A stretch of DNA of 64,000 nt from an uncultured Alphaproteobacteria bacterium. Lineage in GTDB: Bacteria > Pseudomonadota > Alphaproteobacteria > Rhizobiales > Xanthobacteraceae. Position numbers and translations under genes: made by a program. Below the pieces are notes generated by a model. It did no database searches, had not been told where the DNA came from, and was given only the letters and a program-made list of their open reading frames with translations. Location: positions 1,584,274-1,648,273 of the forward strand of contig CAWGKM010000003.1 of assembly GCA_963823225.1 (NCBI GenBank), given 5' to 3'. Positions within the stretch are counted from its first letter, which is position 1. Each line of letters starts with the position of its first letter. Below, in pieces: positions 3,670 to 56,756 of the stretch.

Positions 3670-4443
3670 TCATTGCGCAACGAGGAGTTCAGGCCGAAAT
3701 TCGAAGTGCATCGTATCGAAGTGATACCACTTGCCACCCCAGATGAAGCCGTGTTTTTCGAAGATCGCGACGATCTCCTCGGGCATGCGGTTGCGATAAA
3801 CGATATGGCCATCATGCGGCCGCCAATACCAATAATCCGAAAATGCAGTATTGAGATCGATCGCGATACCGTAACTGTGCGGGCTCGGCTGGCCGGTGTC
3901 CGCCACCGCCCGGCAATCGTAAGTGCCGGCGATCGGGTAGGCGGCGTGTTTGATTTTTGCAGGCAACGCGTCGATCTCCGCCGATACGGCGCGCAAATGC
4001 CCATCGACGCCGTTCACGGAAGTGATGCGGATAGTTTTGCCCCAACTCCCGGGCAGCCAGGCGAGCGAAACAAGGCGCGGCGATACCTCACCCATTCGGC
4101 AGTCGCCGTACATCTTGGCGAAGAAGGCGGTATTGCGGAACCGGCCCGGATCGGCGTCCACGGCCGGCGGCTTTTCCAGCGGGCCGCGCGGATAGGGGAT
4201 GCGAAACTGATCGACGATGGAAGCGTGCCGGATGAGCTGCGGGAATGTCTTGCTCTCGGCGCCGTCGGACGCCGGCATGACCGTGCCGTCGCGCCAACGC
4301 AGCACTTTGCCGTCATGCCCCGCGAGCGCGTGCGGGTAGGCCGCCACCAGCCGGTCGAGCGCCAGACCGACCGCATCATCCTGCGCGAGAAGACCGGTCC
4401 CGCCCGCGAGCATTGCCAATCCGACGACAACGCAAACCTTCAT
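3670..4443 (-). CDS. M15-family metallopeptidase (D-Ala-D-Ala carboxypeptidase-like), secreted
   Basis: Signal peptide starts at MKVCVVVGLAMLAGG. Contains SPHSYGIAIDLN and FIWGGKW..FDTMHFEF motifs typical of VanY/M15 peptidases. Confidence 0.65.
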   Translation of the reverse strand: MKVCVVVGLAMLAGGTGLLAQDDAVGLALDRLVAAYPHALAGHDGKVLRWRDGTVMPASDGAESKTFPQLIRHASIVDQFRIPYPRGPLEKPPAVDADPGRFRNTAFFAKMYGDCRMGEVSPRLVSLAWLPGSWGKTIRITSVNGVDGHLRAVSAEIDALPAKIKHAAYPIAGTYDCRAVADTGQPSPHSYGIAIDLNTAFSDYWYWRPHDGHIVYRNRMPEEIVAIFEKHGFIWGGKWYHFDTMHFEFRPELLVAQ

Positions 4444-6514: not shown

Positions 6515-7492
6515 TCAGCCGATATCGAGCACGATATTGCCGATCACTTCGCCGCGCTCGCTGAGCTCATGGGCCGCGGCGATGTCGCGCAACGGCAAGC
6601 GCCGTCCGACGGTATGCACGAGCCGGTTGCTCCGAAGCAGCGCGCCAAGCTCGGCGAGGCAGGCATCGCGATCGGCGGCACTGAGATCGTAAACAAGAAA
6701 AAGACGAAGCGTGATCGAGTTGCGCATCAGCCAGAGCGTGGGCAGCGTTGCCTCGCTTGACGACATGCCGTAGACGACCACGGTGGCGTGCGGCCGCAAA
6801 ATATTCGGATAGTCCTTGCCGTTCGTTGTGAGGTCGAGCTCGATCAGCGCATCGACGCCGCGCCCGTCGGTCAGCACCTTGACGCGCTCGCCGACATTTT
6901 CGTTCCGGTAGTTGATCACTTCGTCCGCGCCGGCCTTGCGCGCATGCGCCGCCTTCTCAGGCCCACTCACGGTGGTGATCACCCGGGCGCCGCGCAGCTT
7001 TGCAAGCTGGATCGCGTAGTGCGCGACGGAACCGGCGCCGCCGACAACCATCACGGTCGAGGCCGGGCTGAGATCGGCAAGGCGAACCGCCTGAAGCGCG
7101 GTGAGCGCCGGAATACCGAAGCAGGCGCCTTCGGCGTAGCCGATGCTCGCCGGCAGCGGCGCCGCTTGCGCCGAGGGTAGCGCGATATATTCGGCGGCGG
7201 TGCCGTGCGGCCGCCGCCATTGTCCGTTCCAGATCCACACCCGCTCGCCGACCCGGTTGGCAACCCCCGCACCGACCTTGTCGATGTCGCCCGCGCCGTC
7301 GCTGTGGGGAATGACGAGCGGCGCCGACATTGCCGCGCCGCGGCCGCCGCGCGATTTCCAGTCGGACGGATTAGCGCCCGAGGTTTTGAGGCGCACGCGC
7401 ACCTCGCCCGGTCCGGGTTCGGGCGTCGGCTGCTCGCCGATTTGCAGCACTTCGCGCGCGGGTCCCTGCTTGACGTAAAATGCGGCCTGCAT
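6515..7492 (-). CDS. NADPH:quinone reductase / zinc-type alcohol dehydrogenase superfamily oxidoreductase
   Basis: 325 aa of the MDR family, with GEVRVRLKTSGANPSDW and the Rossmann motif VVGGAGSVAHYAIQLAK. Confidence 0.8.
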   Translation of the reverse strand: MQAAFYVKQGPAREVLQIGEQPTPEPGPGEVRVRLKTSGANPSDWKSRGGRGAAMSAPLVIPHSDGAGDIDKVGAGVANRVGERVWIWNGQWRRPHGTAAEYIALPSAQAAPLPASIGYAEGACFGIPALTALQAVRLADLSPASTVMVVGGAGSVAHYAIQLAKLRGARVITTVSGPEKAAHARKAGADEVINYRNENVGERVKVLTDGRGVDALIELDLTTNGKDYPNILRPHATVVVYGMSSSEATLPTLWLMRNSITLRLFLVYDLSAADRDACLAELGALLRSNRLVHTVGRRLPLRDIAAAHELSERGEVIGNIVLDIG

Positions 7493-11159: not shown

Positions 11160-11949
11160 ATGCCGAAACGCCGCACCCGAGCCGTATTCAAGCACATCGC
11201 CTTCGTCGCCAGCGACGCCCCCGAGGCGGAGCGGGCGCGCCGCGCGCCTGATTCGGCGCTATGGCGATGCCCCGCCGGAGACCTCCGACGTCATCGTCGC
11301 GTTGGGCGGCGACGGGTTCATGCTGCAAACCCTGCAACGGTTCATGAACTCCGGCAAGCCGATCTATGGCATGCATCGCGGCACGGTCGGCTTCCTGATG
11401 AACGAATACGGCGAAAAAAACCTCATCGAGCGGCTCGCCGCCGCCCAGGTCACCGTCATCCATCCGCTGTTGATGCGCGCGCGCGACGCCGCCGGCCGCG
11501 TGCACCGCCACCACGCCATCAACGAGGTGTCGCTGTTCCGCCAGATCTATCAGGCGGCGCGGCTGCGCGTGTTGATCGACGGCAAGGTACGGTTGCCCGA
11601 ACTGGTCGCCGACGGCATCCTGCTGGCGACGCCGGCCGGATCGACCGCCTACAATCTCTCGGCACAGGGTCCGATCATTCCGATCGGCGCGCCGCTTCTG
11701 GCGCTCACCCCGATCAGTCCGTTCCGGCCGCGGCGCTGGCGCGGCGCGCTGTTGCCGGACCGCGCGCGGGTGACGGTCGAGGTGCTCGACGCCGCCAAAC
11801 GCCCCGTTGCCGCCGTCGCCGACCACGACGAGGTGCGGTCGGTGCGCTCGGTCGATATTGCCATGGATCACGCGATCGCCATGGACATGCTTTTCGATCC
11901 CGGCCACAGCCTCGACGAGCGCATTTTGCGGGAGCAATTCGGCTACTGA
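11160..11949 (+). CDS. nadK: NAD kinase, reading frame broken by a +1 shift near 11232-11250
   Basis: N-terminus [15 protein letters not shown] is in the frame starting at 11160. The rest ([16 protein letters not shown]...[13 protein letters not shown]) is in the frame of the 11101 ORF. Confidence 0.8.
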
Positions 11950-13198: not shown

Positions 13199-14368
13199 TT
13201 ACGCCGCGACTGAGTGGGCTTCGCAGTCCCGATCCTCGGCGACAAGCTCATCGCAGAACAGCCGCGCCTCTTCGCGCGCGGCTTCGGTCGCAAACCGGCG
13301 CAACAGCGTGAGCAGCGGCGCCAGCTCGCCGAGATCGGCATTTTCGCAGCCGGTGAGGACACGCTCGATCATGCGCCGCTTGAGCCGCGCGGCGCCGCCC
13401 GGTTCCAGCGGGACCCCTTCGCGCAGCGCTTCGATCGCTGCCTTGAAAGCGGGATAGGTCGACGCCGGCAGTTGCGCTCTTTCGAACAGCGCCCGCCAGC
13501 CCACGCTGCCGCGGTCGTGGATGAGCCCCGATACGCGCGCGACCGGCAAATCGGTCAGCTCCGCCAGCGCTTCCTCGAACAGCGCGATATTGCCGGACAA
13601 AAGCGCGCGCAGAATAAGGCCGGCGGTGAGCTGTCCGCTGGCGCACAAATGCCGGACCAGCGGGCGAAGTTCGGTCTCCGGCGTCGCCGCGGCAATCGTC
13701 ACCGTCGCCTTCTCGCAAGCGTCGCGCGCAATGCGTTGCGCTTGATCGACGCCGAGCCAGGCGCGGCCGGCGACAAAACCGGCCAGTGTCTGCGACAGTT
13801 TGATGACCAGCGCCTGCCGCGTGGCGGCGGGTATATCGTCGCGAACCAATAGCGACTCGCGGATTGCGGCGAGGTGACCGAAGCGCTCGACGATGCGATC
13901 GATCGAGAGCGGCGCGATGTCGGCGGCGCGGTTTTCGACGAGCACCAAGCAGGCTTCCGCCGTCCCTATTTCGGCGATTGCGGCGGCAACCGAACACGGC
14001 AGCGCGGCGCGGCTCGCGATCGCCGCTTGCACGGCGGCGCCGCCGGTCGCGACCGCATCGACCAGATCGGCGTCGACAAATAGCGGCGATAGCGCGTAAA
14101 CCGGCGCCGCGATCTGCGGCTGATCGGCGGCGAGCGCGATCACGATCGCCGGCGGCGCGGCTGGACTGGCGGCCAGCGCATCGGCGAGCGAGCGGCGCAC
14201 CAGCGGCGACGGATCGTCGAGCAGCATCAACATCGCGCCTTCGGCGGCGGCGAGATCGTCGGACGACAGCTCGGAATAAAGGTAGGCGCGCGCCAGCGCG
14301 CTCGTGGCCTCGGCCCGTTCGCCGGCCGGCGCGGTGCGTACCCATTGCAGAAAATCGCGGACGATCAT
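13199..14368 (-). CDS. DUF2336-family protein
   Basis: About 389 aa from MIVRDFLQWV. Alanine-rich helical repeats typical of alphaproteobacterial DUF2336, recalled from memory. Confidence 0.55.
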   Translation of the reverse strand: MIVRDFLQWVRTAPAGERAEATSALARAYLYSELSSDDLAAAEGAMLMLLDDPSPLVRRSLADALAASPAAPPAIVIALAADQPQIAAPVYALSPLFVDADLVDAVATGGAAVQAAIASRAALPCSVAAAIAEIGTAEACLVLVENRAADIAPLSIDRIVERFGHLAAIRESLLVRDDIPAATRQALVIKLSQTLAGFVAGRAWLGVDQAQRIARDACEKATVTIAAATPETELRPLVRHLCASGQLTAGLILRALLSGNIALFEEALAELTDLPVARVSGLIHDRGSVGWRALFERAQLPASTYPAFKAAIEALREGVPLEPGGAARLKRRMIERVLTGCENADLGELAPLLTLLRRFATEAAREEARLFCDELVAEDRDCEAHSVAA

Positions 14369-44000: not shown

Positions 44001-44049
44001 GCTAGAGCCTAATCAGTTTTGATTCCATCAAAACTGATTAGGCTCTAGC
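44001..44049. repeat. Perfect 23-bp-arm palindrome
   Basis: gctagagcctaatcagttttgat-tcc-atcaaaactgattaggctctagc. Confidence 0.9.
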
Positions 44050-53495: not shown

Positions 53496-53729
53496 CTAAA
53501 AGCGGTGAGGGTGCGGTCCGGCAGGCGGAATGTATAAGTTGTTAGGTTGGCAGAACCCACCGATCCCACTCACGTAGGCCATGCACTGATCGTGGGTGGA
53601 AAAGCCGCAATTGTAGGCAGCATCGCCCATGTTGAGAACCGCACACCACGGATAATTTTGCGCTTTAGCTGGCGTGCCGATTGCCGCCATACCGGCGAGT
53701 AGTCCCAGCATGAAGAGTGAAAGTCTCAT
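53496..53729 (-). CDS. DUF3551-family small secreted protein (paralog 1)
   Basis: Signal peptide plus QNYPWCA...NCGFSTHDQCMAYVSGIGGFC. Confidence 0.7.
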   Translation of the reverse strand: MRLSLFMLGLLAGMAAIGTPAKAQNYPWCAVLNMGDAAYNCGFSTHDQCMAYVSGIGGFCQPNNLYIPPAGPHPHRF

Positions 53730-53994
53730 AGCCGAACTCCTAGCGTTGCGGCTCTGTGTATGAACACCAATGTGTATTTTTTATTCCAGCAACGAGGATT
53801 GGCATGCATCGAAATCAATAGTGCTGCTGCATTTTGCAGGACGTCGCTTGGGTCATCAACATCATTTTCGGCGCATTTGGCCTTCGTCGGCGGCGGGTAG
53901 CAGTTACTGATATCAGCATGCCGCGGGTGGAAGCCAGGACGGCTAGCGACCGTTGGCGAACTGCTGCACAAGTCGTAGTGCGGCGACAATTCGG

Positions 53995-54249
53995 TCAATA
54001 ATGAGGACGTCTTGGAGACTTTGTGAGCGGATGAGGTCCGGGCGGATGGTAAGTATTGTTTTGGATGCAGAAACCGCCGATACCGCTCACATCGGCCATG
54101 CACTGTTGGTAGGTTGAGAAGCCGCAATTCATGCTGCCGCTCATGGCGCCGCCGTATTGCGCACACCAGGGATAATTTTGCCCTTCGGCCGGGGTGCAAA
54201 ACGCAGTTGCCGCGGCGGTAATGCCAAATACGAACAGCAATGACTTCAT
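53995..54249 (-). CDS. DUF3551-family small secreted protein (paralog 2)
   Basis: QNYPWCAQY...NCGFSTYQQCMADVSGIGGFC. Confidence 0.7.
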   Translation of the reverse strand: MKSLLFVFGITAAATAFCTPAEGQNYPWCAQYGGAMSGSMNCGFSTYQQCMADVSGIGGFCIQNNTYHPPGPHPLTKSPRRPHY

Positions 54250-54482
54250 AGTCGCCTTCCGGATTTGGGGGATGGATGGGCTGGAACGTATAAGCTGTTA
54301 AGTTGGCAGAACCCTCCGATCCCACTTATGGTGGCCATGCATTGTTGAAAGGTTGTGAATCCGCAAGTCGCGCCGTCCCTGTAGCTGTATTGCGCGCACC
54401 ACGGATAATTTTGAGCCTCCGCGCGCGTGTTGATCGCGGTTGTCACCACGAAAAATCCTAACGCAAAAAGAAAACACCTCAT
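54246..54482 (-). CDS. DUF3551-family small secreted protein (paralog 3)
   Basis: QNYPWCAQY...CGFTTFQQCMATISGIGGFC. Overlaps paralog 2 by 4 nt. Confidence 0.7.
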   Translation of the reverse strand: MRCFLFALGFFVVTTAINTRAEAQNYPWCAQYSYRDGATCGFTTFQQCMATISGIGGFCQLNSLYVPAHPSPKSGRRL

Positions 54483-54960
54483 GACCGGTCTCCTTTGGAT
54501 TGCGTTGGCTCTCGGTTATTAACGCCGAACCCGCTATTTTATTCCACCGATCACGAACAGAATTTTGGCTGCGCTGTGACCCTTCCGAAGACTAGAAAAG
54601 TAACCCATGGGGCGCAAAACAGTCCGAGATGGTGACGCTGTTGTGGCAGACCAGGGCTGTTTTCGCCCAGCGCAAAAATCATCAATCTCTCGACTGCTGC
54701 GATGCACACTCCACTTCCCACGTGGGTCATTCACGTCATTACGGGCCGCGGGTTCGGACTTCCGCTTGTCCCCCAATTGCAGACATATCGCTGCACCGCA
54801 CTAACCGTCGCGGAGGGCCAGGAACGCGCCCTACCTTCCGCTTCTCGGCCGGGAGATCACAAACAATACGAGCCCTCGCCGGCGCCGGTGCATGTGAACC
54901 TAGGGCGAACCTAAGCAAATCAGATTCGGATGCCGTATTTACACAAGCCACTGACATTGC

Positions 54961-55015
54961 TGGTGCGGACGGCCGGACTTGAACCGGCACGGGGTTGCCC
55001 CCAAGGGATTTTAAG
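54961..55015 (-). pseudogene. 3' half (anticodon loop to CCA) of a disrupted tRNA-Leu(UAA)
   Basis: The minus strand reads CTTAAAATCCCTTGGGGGCAACCCCGTGCCGGTTCAAGTCCGGCCGTCCGCACCA. No matching 5' half is adjacent. The partner lies at 56260-56297. Confidence 0.85.
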
Positions 55016-55154
55016 TCTTTGGAGGCTAGCAAAAAGCCCTTATTTCATTGGGTTTTTCGACCGTCAAATTCGAAGTGTGTAAGAAAGTGTGTGAGACTTA
55101 AATTCCTATCCACGTGCCATTGACGGAATTGCACGGTCTCGACAGGTTCGGAGG

Positions 55155-55385
55155 ATGCAATTCGAGATTCTCGGCGCAATTTCGCAGGTCGAGACGTTCG
55201 CCGCTGGGACCGGAATTCGTGAAATCGCGCGGCTACGCAGGATCTATGGGCGGGGCCGCTGGCGCAAACGCAAGGGCGTCGCTCGCATTCGATTGCCCAA
55301 TGGCTCTATTCATATGGCTGAAGTACACTGGTACGAAGCCAGCGGAATCGGCCGCAAGGAATTCAAGATCAAACATCTGCTTTAA
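55155..55385 (+). CDS. Small hypothetical protein (76 aa), first gene of a compact pair
   Basis: ORF MQFEILGAISQVETFAAG...RWRKRKGVARIRLPNGSIHMAEVHWYEASGIGRKEFKIKHLL. GGAGG sits immediately before the ATG. The family looks familiar but I cannot name it. Confidence 0.5.
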   Translation: MQFEILGAISQVETFAAGTGIREIARLRRIYGRGRWRKRKGVARIRLPNGSIHMAEVHWYEASGIGRKEFKIKHLL

Positions 55386-55396
55386 AACGCAAAGCC

Positions 55397-55627
55397 ATGG
55401 CAAAATCGCAAGCGAAGCAACTGGTCGTATGCGTCAGCAACGAGGGCTATTCGGCCTCGCTCGAAAAGCGCAAAATTTATGTCGCGCTCCGCGACGCCGA
55501 CGCCGAAAAGCATAGCCTGCTTCGGATCGTCGATAAATCCGGGGAAGACTATCTCTTCCCGAAATCATTCTTTCGTTCGATCGCCTTGCCGCAAGCCGTC
55601 AGGAAGGCCGTATTAGCGGCGGCATAA
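55397..55627 (+). CDS. Small hypothetical protein (76 aa), second gene of the pair
   Basis: Starts 11 nt after the first ORF's stop. MAKSQAKQLVVCVSNEGYSASLEKRKIYVALRDADAEKHSLLRIVDKSGEDYLFPKSFF. Confidence 0.5.
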   Translation: MAKSQAKQLVVCVSNEGYSASLEKRKIYVALRDADAEKHSLLRIVDKSGEDYLFPKSFFRSIALPQAVRKAVLAAA

Positions 55628-55912
55628 TTCCGCGACGCCTGGCGCCTAACCTGGGAAGGCTTCGCCATAACGGCACGCGGAGGCGCAGTCCAACGCCGCG
55701 GCGCCTGTCGCTCATTGGTGGACAATCACACCGAACTTCAGCATGTCATCCTGACGGCTGAACGCGTAGTTGAACAACGGCGATGCCGGCGGCGGCGGTG
55801 GCGTAACAAATCGTCTCACTACGCTCATGTTACGCATGAGCTTCGAGGGACATCCTTCGCCCAAGATGCGGCTTTGGCTAGCTGCGCCATCCGAAGCCCG
55901 CAGGGCGAAGGA

Positions 55913-56202
55913 TGGTGCGGGCGGCCGGAATCGAACCGGCACGGGGTTTCCCCCAACGGATTTTCGTACCAGCTACGGCTTTCACCGCCGCCGCGAATGG
56001 CGTTTGTGGTCTGGACTATACCTTCGCCGTAGCGTGAGCCTTAGGCGCTGCCCGTCTAGTCTCTACACCTTCCCTTTCGGGCTTGGCTCGGGATTGCCAT
56101 CTGACAGGTTTCCCCGACTTTGAGCAGTTCTACGTCTCGGGTTTCCCGCGAGCGCACTCAATTTCCTTAAGTCCGTTGCGTCTACCGTTCCGCCACGCCC
56201 GC
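55913..56202 (-). tRNA. tRNA-Leu (anticodon UAA) interrupted by a group I intron between U34 and A35
   Basis: Exon 1 (56202..56169) is GCGGGCGTGGCGGAACGGTAGACGCAACGGACTT. Exon 2 (55964..55913) is AAAATCCGTTGGGGGAAACCCCGTGCCGGTTCGATTCCGGCCGCCCGCACCA. Joined, they give a complete class II cloverleaf. Confidence 0.85.
55965..56168 (-). ncRNA. Group I intron (IC3-like, 204 nt, no ORF)
   Basis: Core strings CUCAAAGUCGGGGAAACCU, AUGGCAAUCCCGAGCCAAGCC, GAAGGUGUAGAGACUAGACGGG and CCUAAGGCUCACGCUACGG match the remembered Azoarcus tRNA-Ile and Anabaena tRNA-Leu introns. U precedes the 5' splice site and the terminal nucleotide is G. Confidence 0.85.
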
Positions 56203-56259
56203 ATTGCGTTGATCACATACCCTGCCCGTCTGACCGGACAGCAGTCCTAAATTTGCAAC

Positions 56260-56297
56260 TTTTAAGTCCCTTGCGTCTACCATTTCGCCACGTCCGC
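56260..56297 (-). pseudogene. 5' half (position 1 to anticodon loop) of the disrupted tRNA-Leu(UAA)
   Basis: The minus strand reads GCGGACGTGGCGAAATGGTAGACGCAAGGGACTTAAAA. Its acceptor strand GCGGACG and anticodon stem AGGGA pair with CGTCCGC and TCCCT of the 54961-55015 fragment. Confidence 0.85.
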
Positions 56298-56459
56298 GAA
56301 GCGGACATCGATAAGGACGTCCGCGGAGCGGACATCCGTTCGGACATCCGCGCGGCGGCATTTGTAGCACTCGCGGCGCGTGCCCCGGAAGCGACGATAA
56401 ATTCGAAAAGGCCGATCCCGTCCCGATCCGGCCCGGCCCGCCGCAACGGTTAGGTCCGT

Positions 56460-56756
56460 TCACTGCTGCTTCTTGTTCTGCGACACAGTCTTATTTTGCG
56501 ACGCAGGCTTACTCTGCGGCGCGGTCGCCGGCGCAGGGCGCACACTGGCCCACGGATCGTTGGCGGAGCTCTGATCGGGAATTTTCTTGGTCGCCGATCT
56601 GTAGGCGTTATCAATCTGCTTGTCCTTTTCGATCTGCTCCCGCGTCCGGTGATTTTCCAATTCGAGAGATACACTGGGCATTATCGGCAACTGGGCGAAT
56701 GCGGTCCCCGTCAGCCAGGCGATGAGCGCAACCGCTAGGATGAGTCTTTGCAGCAT
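56460..56756 (-). CDS. Small secreted hypothetical protein
   Basis: Signal peptide MLQRLILAVALIAWLTGTAFA, then a low-complexity polar tail. Confidence 0.5.
   Translation of the reverse strand: MLQRLILAVALIAWLTGTAFAQLPIMPSVSLELENHRTREQIEKDKQIDNAYRSATKKIPDQSSANDPWASVRPAPATAPQSKPASQNKTVSQNKKQQ

Follow-up and report, generated by a model that had tools for sequence, protein, structure and literature searches.

Within a 64-kb stretch of an alphaproteobacterial metagenome contig (CAWGKM010000003.1, positions 1,584,274 to 1,648,273; this whole stretch is called the window below, and all positions refer to it), a tRNA-Leu(UAA) gene is split in its anticodon loop by an insert of 1,244 nt (55016..56259) that holds a second, complete tRNA-Leu(UAA) gene plus two small open reading frames (ORFs), ORF1 and ORF2. 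We refer to the split resident gene as A and to the inner cargo gene as B; the features of the locus are collected in Table 1.

Table 1. Features of the split tRNA-Leu(UAA) locus, ordered along the minus strand from the 5' half to the 3' half of A.
Feature	Position	Strand	Evidence or remark
Displaced 5' half of A	56297..56260	minus	acceptor, D arm, 5' anticodon stem, loop CTTAAAA; attL side
attL copy of the putative 7-nt crossover core CTTAAAA (anticodon loop)	56260..56266	minus	shared repeat of two-ended elements
Left-end spacer of the element, 57 nt	56203..56259	minus	degenerate promoter-like box, no arm repeat
Cargo tRNA-Leu(UAA) B	56202..55913	minus	ARAGORN i(35,204); Rfam RF00028
Parts of B	5' exon 56202..56169; group I intron 56168..55965; 3' exon 55964..55913	minus	3' exon with encoded CCA
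ORF2, 76 aa	55397..55627	plus	second gene of conserved two-gene module; paired with ORF1 elsewhere
ORF1, 76 aa	55155..55385	plus	first gene of two-gene module; 5,143 homologous clusters
Tandem arm-type repeat TCACACA-CTTTC-TTACACA	55076..55094	minus	60 nt from attR core
attR copy of the core CTTAAAA	55009..55015	minus	sequence and repeat comparison
Displaced 3' half of A	55015..54961	minus	loop, 3' anticodon stem, variable arm, T arm, acceptor, CCA

The 5' half of A reads GCGGACG-TG-GCG-AAATGGTAGA-CGC-A-AGGGA-CTTAAAA and the 3' half reads CTTAAAA-TCCCT-(variable arm)-GCCGG-TTCAAGT-CCGGC-CGTCCGC-A-CCA; joining 56297..56260 to 55008..54961 through a single copy of the loop yields a canonical 86-nt tRNA-Leu(UAA) (ARAGORN). 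The coordinates and sequences of both halves and of the insert are all as described in an earlier reading of this DNA, made without database searches (the sequence-only reading), which had also claimed that the stems pair only between the two separated pieces. This is borne out by comparison with B: the two genes differ at 9 of 86 positions, including two compensatory pairs (5:78 in the acceptor stem and 28:42 in the anticodon stem), so that each lone half is complementary to the other and not to B. Neither junction rebuilds A, since foreign DNA follows the 5' half and foreign DNA precedes the 3' half, the common core being 7 bp (9 bp are identical). The 9-bp sequence GACTTAAAA, proposed earlier as the junction repeat, is present exactly twice in the 64 kb, both times at the junctions (expected, 0.08; 0 of 100 shuffles reach 2), and the repeat is therefore significant; comparison with other split loci indicates, however, that the meaningful unit is the 7-nt loop CTTAAAA, while the extra GA is an element-side similarity to the anticodon stem. 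Terminal inverted repeats at the insert ends and a transposase among its ORFs were looked for and neither was found, in agreement with the sequence-only reading. The window contains no further tRNA-Leu gene besides A and B, and no second island marked by a repeated tRNA 3' end.

The inner gene had been described as a complete substitute tRNA-Leu(UAA) with a group I intron, and both ARAGORN and RF00028 confirm this. The intron of 204 nt lies between U34 and A35 (ARAGORN) and scores 51 bits against RF00028 (gathering score 50; E=1.2e-11), with P1 and the catalytic core paired; the acceptor of B itself is GCGGGCG. The intron's splice sites, marked by a slash, read ...GGACTT/AAGGAAATTGAG...GGTACG/AAAATCCGT: a U precedes the 5' splice site and the intron ends in G.

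The same split structure occurs in a contig of an ENA metagenome (L003; loci fetched for comparison carry L numbers) and in two Logan contigs (L001, L002). L003 comes from a related strain whose flanks diverge by 5-8% from the window. Every copy of the insert that we saw, in the window and in L001-L003, occupies one locus, and a scan of the metagenome collection for the left junction (CTTAAAAGTTGCAAATTTAGG) returned a single match, a chance match to an unrelated AT-rich contig. Divergence between the window and L003 is mosaic: 0-0.4% over 52.5-56.25 kb, element included, and 5-8% over 56.25-58.25 kb, the switch coinciding with the attL junction. Because of this recombination-mosaic profile, the insertion cannot be dated from the divergence of the two.

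The flanking genes suggest a Bradyrhizobium-like alphaproteobacterium; among them are gpt, a ChrR-type cupin, a DUF5939 cyclase, CinA and three DUF3551 paralogues. Six related contigs (L131-L136) hold a single intact, intronless tRNA-Leu(UAA) after the same CinA-hydrolase-cyclase-gpt-cupin order, their gpt being 87% identical in DNA to that of the window. In L131, the 5' half of the intact gene is identical to the window's at 38/38 positions, and the acceptor and T arm match too. The intact allele that the sequence-only reading had suggested seeking in relatives thus exists, with an unconserved downstream flank, and it bears out the proposal that a tRNA-Leu(UAA), intact before, received an insertion in its anticodon loop. 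In a further relative (L130), the resident tRNA-Leu at the same place has its own intron of 234 nt and no lone halves are present.

At the split loci, the dominant ORF family on the element side (ORF clustering; at least 12 loci) encodes proteins of 390-450 aa, starts 120-200 nt past the junction and lies on the tRNA strand. The family has weak Pfam matches, to PF00589 (Phage_integrase; E=2e-4, with the whole domain covered) and to an N-terminal SAM-like domain, and it has an LRHTY motif and a C-terminal YY. Homologues, which form at least 7,359 clusters at E<=1e-10, are named integrase, site-specific integrase or tyrosine-type recombinase in public sources; searches of PDB sequences with the integrase, as a single sequence and as a profile of seven, gave nothing meaningful, and NCBIfam gave nothing. 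Next to this integrase, the host 5' halves vary (GCGAGCG, GGCCCCG, GCGGACG, GCGGGCG), while the tRNA downstream of it has the same GCGGGCG acceptor and an intron in most of these loci, which argues that the tRNA travels with the integrase.

One relative at the same site, L137, has a lone 5' half followed by 139 nt, a 452-aa tyrosine integrase and an intron-bearing cargo tRNA-Leu; B matches this cargo gene at 94% identity and the cargo gene of L053 at 93%. The gpt-cupin-small ORF context of L137 is that of the window, with 81-87% identity in the flanks, and the L137-type integrase recurs at no fewer than 13 further loci. Another relative (L143-L147) combines the same context, integrase and cargo tRNA with a HicAB pair as added cargo. 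The element had been described as having no integrase; this holds for the window itself (tblastn) but not for L137 and other homologous elements, which carry a tyrosine integrase. In Micavibrio aeruginosavorus (L138), a member of the same integrase family lies after an intact tRNA-Leu, and a displaced 3' half 10 kb away starts exactly at CTTAAAA; the identity block at its att sites spans 52 nt versus 7-9 bp in the window. We read this layout as the classical tRNA-restoring outcome, produced by the same integrase family at the same crossover point. The integrase family also occurs in three viral contigs, of which one (L149) has a lone 5' half; all three are too heavily truncated for prophage status to be judged. 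One IMG/VR contig (L150 5942-7449) has the same integrase family and a TTACACA repeat beside a tRNA-Leu(CAA), and is possibly a sister lineage with another target.

The window shares a second feature with these elements. The tandem repeat TCACACA-CTTTC-TTACACA close to attR is the sole match in 64 kb, where none is expected, and the right end of L138 carries TTACACA-GTTTC-TTACACA, with 61 nt between it and the attR core. Of the 150 loci fetched, none but the window lineage and the L138 and L143-L147 elements, at their right ends, have this form with a 5-nt gap. A related form, TTACACA-N4-TTACACA, lies 53-142 nt inside attL, just upstream of int, in 13 integrase-bearing loci and is nearly absent from the other 890 kb of fetched DNA; the left-arm (P'-arm) repeat is absent from the window's 57-nt left spacer. 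From its sequence and spacing, we read the window repeat as a putative P-arm integrase-binding site of the family's attP. In L143 (17438-17520), the right-arm repeat is present with no CTTAAAA core or 3' half about 60 nt further on: this lineage seems to have lost the displaced 3' half, which the window keeps intact.

To place the locus in a wider frame, one genome per species was scanned for 5' halves not followed by T, a pattern that excludes intact genes, and at least 119 loci were found. Among the 119 matches listed, 52 have a group I intron directly after the half, 2 have an 8-nt anticodon loop and 65 have foreign DNA right after CTTAAAA. A complete tRNA-Leu(UAA) lies downstream in 24 of these 65 (ARAGORN), and 10 more have an intron-bearing tRNA-Leu to which ARAGORN gives a wrong identity from wrong splice points (seven checked by alignment, three assigned from ARAGORN calls and BLAST similarity to B), making 34 cargo tRNA-Leu genes among the matches listed, 21 with an intron and 13 without. 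At nine of the listed loci (L074, L086, L107, L111, L012, L071, L018, L076, L124), matching halves enclose an insert of 0.9-4 kb that has a cargo tRNA-Leu and no integrase, and in all nine the direct repeat is the 7-nt anticodon loop, at times extended to 9-13 bp. A constant core with variable extra identity argues for site-specific recombination, since a target duplication would have a fixed length. Further lone 5' halves, with T as the next base, precede intron-bearing tRNA-Leu genes at L015 (~2045-2085), L079 (~3788-3828) and L116 (~896-936); as the scan pattern excludes such halves, 65 is an underestimate. The tRNA-Leu-like genes with an 8-nt anticodon loop (CTTAAAAA; L084 4483-4570 and L050 ~7117-7200), whose anticodon ARAGORN gives as 'taaa', could be frameshift-suppressor-like tRNAs or reflect a homopolymer error. 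Lone tRNA halves mislead tRNA finders: ARAGORN joins a lone 5' half to a cargo 3' exon, creating false introns of 417-1,544 nt (L011, L012, L071, L082, L108, L114), and it misidentifies intron-bearing tRNA-Leu genes, for example at L017 and L087.

We conclude that the insert is probably an integrase-less derivative, most likely a decayed remnant, of an island belonging to a widespread tyrosine-integrase family that attaches at the anticodon loop of tRNA-Leu(UAA). From the anatomy of the locus, the intact allele in the same upstream context, the same-site homologue with an integrase and the shared arm motif, we infer how the recombination chemistry, the splicing and function of the cargo tRNA, intron immunity and the order of integrase loss would fit together. 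The integrase would recombine attP with the resident gene across a 7-bp overlap, CTTAAAA. What attP has in common with the target would be the loop and a base or two of the stem, leaving the halves of A as attL and attR; as attP shares little beyond the loop, the tRNA would not be rebuilt on integration. The element would offset the loss by bringing a complete tRNA-Leu(UAA), and the cargo gene would take over decoding of UUA and UUG. In this family the cargo gene would be interrupted at U34/A35 by a self-splicing group I intron, which would divide the CTTAAAA core of the cargo in the DNA and so spare it as a second target. Excision would be predicted to leave a circle with the junction CCTCCAAAGA-CTTAAAA-GTTGCAAATTT (CCAAAGA-CTTAAAA-GTTGCAA) and to restore the attB GGGACTTAAAATCCCT. 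The window copy retains both cores, B, ORF1/ORF2 and the P-arm repeat 60 nt from attR; it has neither the integrase gene nor the P'-arm repeat, is unable to move by itself, and is probably a non-autonomous derivative that has become a dead or fixed relic.

Several observations weigh against this conclusion. The integrase is missing from the ORFs of the insert and from the whole 64-kb window (tblastn with three family integrases), so that integration by an L137-type family is deduced from relatives, and the assignment of the family as integrases consists of a sub-threshold Pfam match and source annotations. The empty-site contigs L131-L136 match the upstream flank only, the downstream flank being different. 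No homology to the integrase-bearing elements could be detected for the ORF1/ORF2 part or for the left 57 nt, which share no k-mers with integrase-type left arms, so that the window element may be a mosaic and not the product of a simple internal deletion. Finally, both tRNA halves are undamaged, which fits a recent or reversible insertion as well as a dead remnant.

This last point bears on the alternative that the insert is a live, non-autonomous mini-element, moved by a cognate integrase encoded elsewhere in the genome and keeping only the att cores, one arm site, a replacement tRNA and a stabilizing two-gene module. Cis-mobilizable elements (CIMEs) and other non-autonomous integrative elements likewise consist of recombinase-less DNA flanked by intact att sites. 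The window element resembles CIMEs in having att sites without a recombinase gene and differs from them in that we found no evidence of its mobilization. With cores and tRNA halves intact, excision would restore a working gene; the P-arm repeat is kept at its exact spacing, and the nine other integrase-less inserts from the scan have a comparable build. However, the P'-arm repeat is not present, 64 kb contain no integrase, the left junction occurs nowhere else in the metagenome collection bar the chance match, the copies in the window and L001-L003 are all at one locus, and the other small inserts have no TTACACA repeat, their cargo being unrelated. We therefore regard a mobile state as unlikely.

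A wider proposal joins this idea to that of intron immunity: the cargo intron would confer target-site immunity, and inserts of about 1 kb that have no integrase (the window, L074, L086, L107, L111 and others) would be hitchhiking mini-elements mobilized in trans and not debris. We consider the two together doubtful, if worth stating. That the intron shields the cargo from insertion had been suggested from the window alone. In favor of it, the intron is present in 12/12 visible cargo tRNAs of the TTACACA family, their spliced sequence (ACGGA-CTTAAAA-TCCGT) equals the sites that the family attacks in L033, L052 and L061, and in L033 an intronless cargo-type tRNA (GCGGGCG) has itself been cut. 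The idea is thus plausible and has some support, without being proven: the same pattern would arise by common descent of one intron-bearing gene. In L033 (2232-2330), two lone 5' halves lie 38 nt apart, the host type GGCCCCG first and the cargo type GCGGGCG second, which points to nested, serial integrations. Within one element, L144, the intron-bearing cargo tRNA-Leu is duplicated (11221-11510 and 13407-13696).

The direct repeat of 9 bp at both ends of the insert would also suit a transposon-like event in which a DDE transposase, supplied in trans, duplicated the target site, 9 bp being a common duplication length (IS1, IS4 and Tn10 families). We reject this very improbable explanation: terminal inverted repeats are absent, parallel insertions show repeats that vary from 7 to 13 bp and always cover the anticodon loop, and related elements, which share the arm repeat, have a tyrosine integrase adjoining attL.

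Equally rejected, and if anything less credible, is the notion that the insert is a giant or degenerate intron, or that the halves are joined in trans, so that the outer tRNA would still be expressed. The ambiguity of the junction does allow a position at U34/A35, the classical site of tRNA-Leu introns, but the sole group I core belongs to the inner gene B, no register of the outer junctions combines a U ahead of the 5' splice site with a terminal intron G, and homologous loci show integrase-made junctions of this kind. An assembly chimera, for which nothing speaks beyond the oddity of the structure and which the sequence-only reading had named as a way in which it could be wrong, is the least probable of all and is rejected because three independent assemblies (L001, L002, L003) agree, one of them from the strain with 5-8% flank divergence.

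Returning to the island remnant that we favor, the remaining cargo is the ORF1/ORF2 pair. ORF1 has homologues in 5,143 clusters, many at 80-92% identity, and the pair also occurs at unrelated, tRNA-free loci (L004-L010) with 78% DNA identity. The AlphaFold model of ORF1 is confident (predicted local distance difference test, pLDDT, 87.8) with a beta-alpha-beta3 arrangement and matches no PDB fold at E<=0.001; the single-sequence model of ORF2 is poor, too poor for a fold search. Neither protein matches Pfam, NCBIfam or PADLOC, and PHROGs gave nothing meaningful (a weak match for ORF2), so that these four sources hold no meaningful homology to toxin or antitoxin families. The resemblance to toxin-antitoxin systems consists of the layout of two small genes and the independent occurrence of the pair. 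Given this layout, and with HicAB at the analogous place in L143, we would guess that ORF1/ORF2 form a stabilizing, addiction-like module.

How B might be expressed is suggested by the relatives. In L053, L137, L077, L033, L030, L080, L045, L095 and L141, about 12 nt separate the cargo tRNA from a conserved promoter-like box, CTTGGC-N17-CTATAG, which lies within the integrase gene or just past its end; aligned by eye upstream of the cargo tRNAs, the window spacer has only a degenerate CTGTCC-N16-GTATGT at this position. A scan of 54800-56600 for the sigma-70 consensus gave no promoter match, and terminator matches were at chance level. In at least 12 loci, the cargo gene lies 5-72 nt past the junction in the same orientation, which fits the earlier idea of a resident promoter, and B is possibly read from that of the resident tRNA.

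Three further features of the neighborhood deserve mention. On the minus strand, the 5' half is immediately preceded at 56290-56343 by 27-nt units in tandem, which contain GTCCGC...GCGGAC palindromes and overlap the first tRNA bases; they are also present in the empty-site relative L131 (6440-6480) and could be an upstream terminator or regulatory site. Directly downstream of the displaced 3' half, at 53496-54482, lie the three DUF3551 paralogues in tandem (77, 84 and 78 aa; DNA repeat families D1 and D2). At 44001-44049, the arms of a perfect inverted repeat (GCTAGAGCCTAATCAGTTTTGAT / ATCAAAACTGATTAGGCTCTAGC), 23 nt each, enclose a 3-nt spacer.

Islands in tRNA genes with crossover in the anticodon loop were reportedly treated by Williams in 2002. 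The window locus resembles classical tRNA-gene islands (Islander database, PMC4383910) in that the tRNA is split at the anticodon loop and a displaced fragment marks the far end; classical islands, however, carry the 3' part of the tRNA, regenerate the gene at attL and displace a 3' fragment, whereas the window element displaces both halves and brings a whole gene.

The sequence-only reading knew of no described element with this design, yet the design has been published as tRNA-dependent lysogeny (PMC10865867), and a similar substitution is known from Sinorhizobium prophages (PMC11476347). In mycobacteriophages, tRNA-dependent lysogeny was tested experimentally: with a common core of 8-10 bp, integration does not reconstruct the tRNA, and the phage-borne tRNA is needed (Guerrero-Bustamante and Hatfull, mBio 2024, PMC10865867), while sister phages with a 43-bp core rebuild the tRNA (Boilgate versus Fionnbharth; PMC10865867), a pair paralleled here by L138 versus L137 and the window. 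Like the actinobacteriophages Fionnbharth, Cluster L and Gaia (PMC10865867), the elements described here combine a tyrosine integrase, a host tRNA target, a short core at the anticodon region and their own tRNA as cargo. They differ in the alphaproteobacterial host, in the target tRNA-Leu(UAA), in the group I intron of the cargo and in that no phage genes were seen; the window copy, moreover, is 1.24 kb long and has no integrase, and it is for the phages that the need for the cargo tRNA has been shown. In Sinorhizobium meliloti, prophages substitute a tRNA by the tRNA gene of the integrated element (PMC11476347), so that, as here, a tRNA gene of an alphaproteobacterial host is functionally replaced by an element-borne gene; those are full-size prophages at tRNA-Leu(UAG), and neither an intron nor a miniature element is reported there.

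The intron of B is like group I introns of type Leu.3Ug, subgroup IC3 (10.1101/2020.01.27.920355; RF00028), in its position (CUU/...g/AAAA), the U before the 5' splice site, the terminal G and the core; unlike in the usual Leu.3Ug, the intron-bearing gene is the cargo of an element and not a resident gene. The Williams 2020 preprint (10.1101/2020.01.27.920355) noted ARAGORN 'ghost exons' beside real ones, which may be lone halves of this kind. The kind of event, integration by a tyrosine integrase with tRNA replacement, is thus not new, and the family may be: in the literature searched, we found no earlier description of an intron-bearing replacement tRNA-Leu as the cargo of a large, anticodon-loop-targeting integrase family, nor of how frequent integrase-less inserts of about 1 kb with this build are.

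Taken together, our findings indicate that the strategy of breaking a tRNA gene and bringing one's own, experimentally shown only in actinobacteriophages, appears common in Proteobacteria and beyond (at least 65 broken 5' halves). If the intron does shield the element's tRNA from its own integrase, this would partly explain the patchy distribution of tRNA-Leu introns in Proteobacteria, and these islands would be a main vehicle spreading intron-bearing tRNA-Leu(UAA) genes among Alphaproteobacteria.

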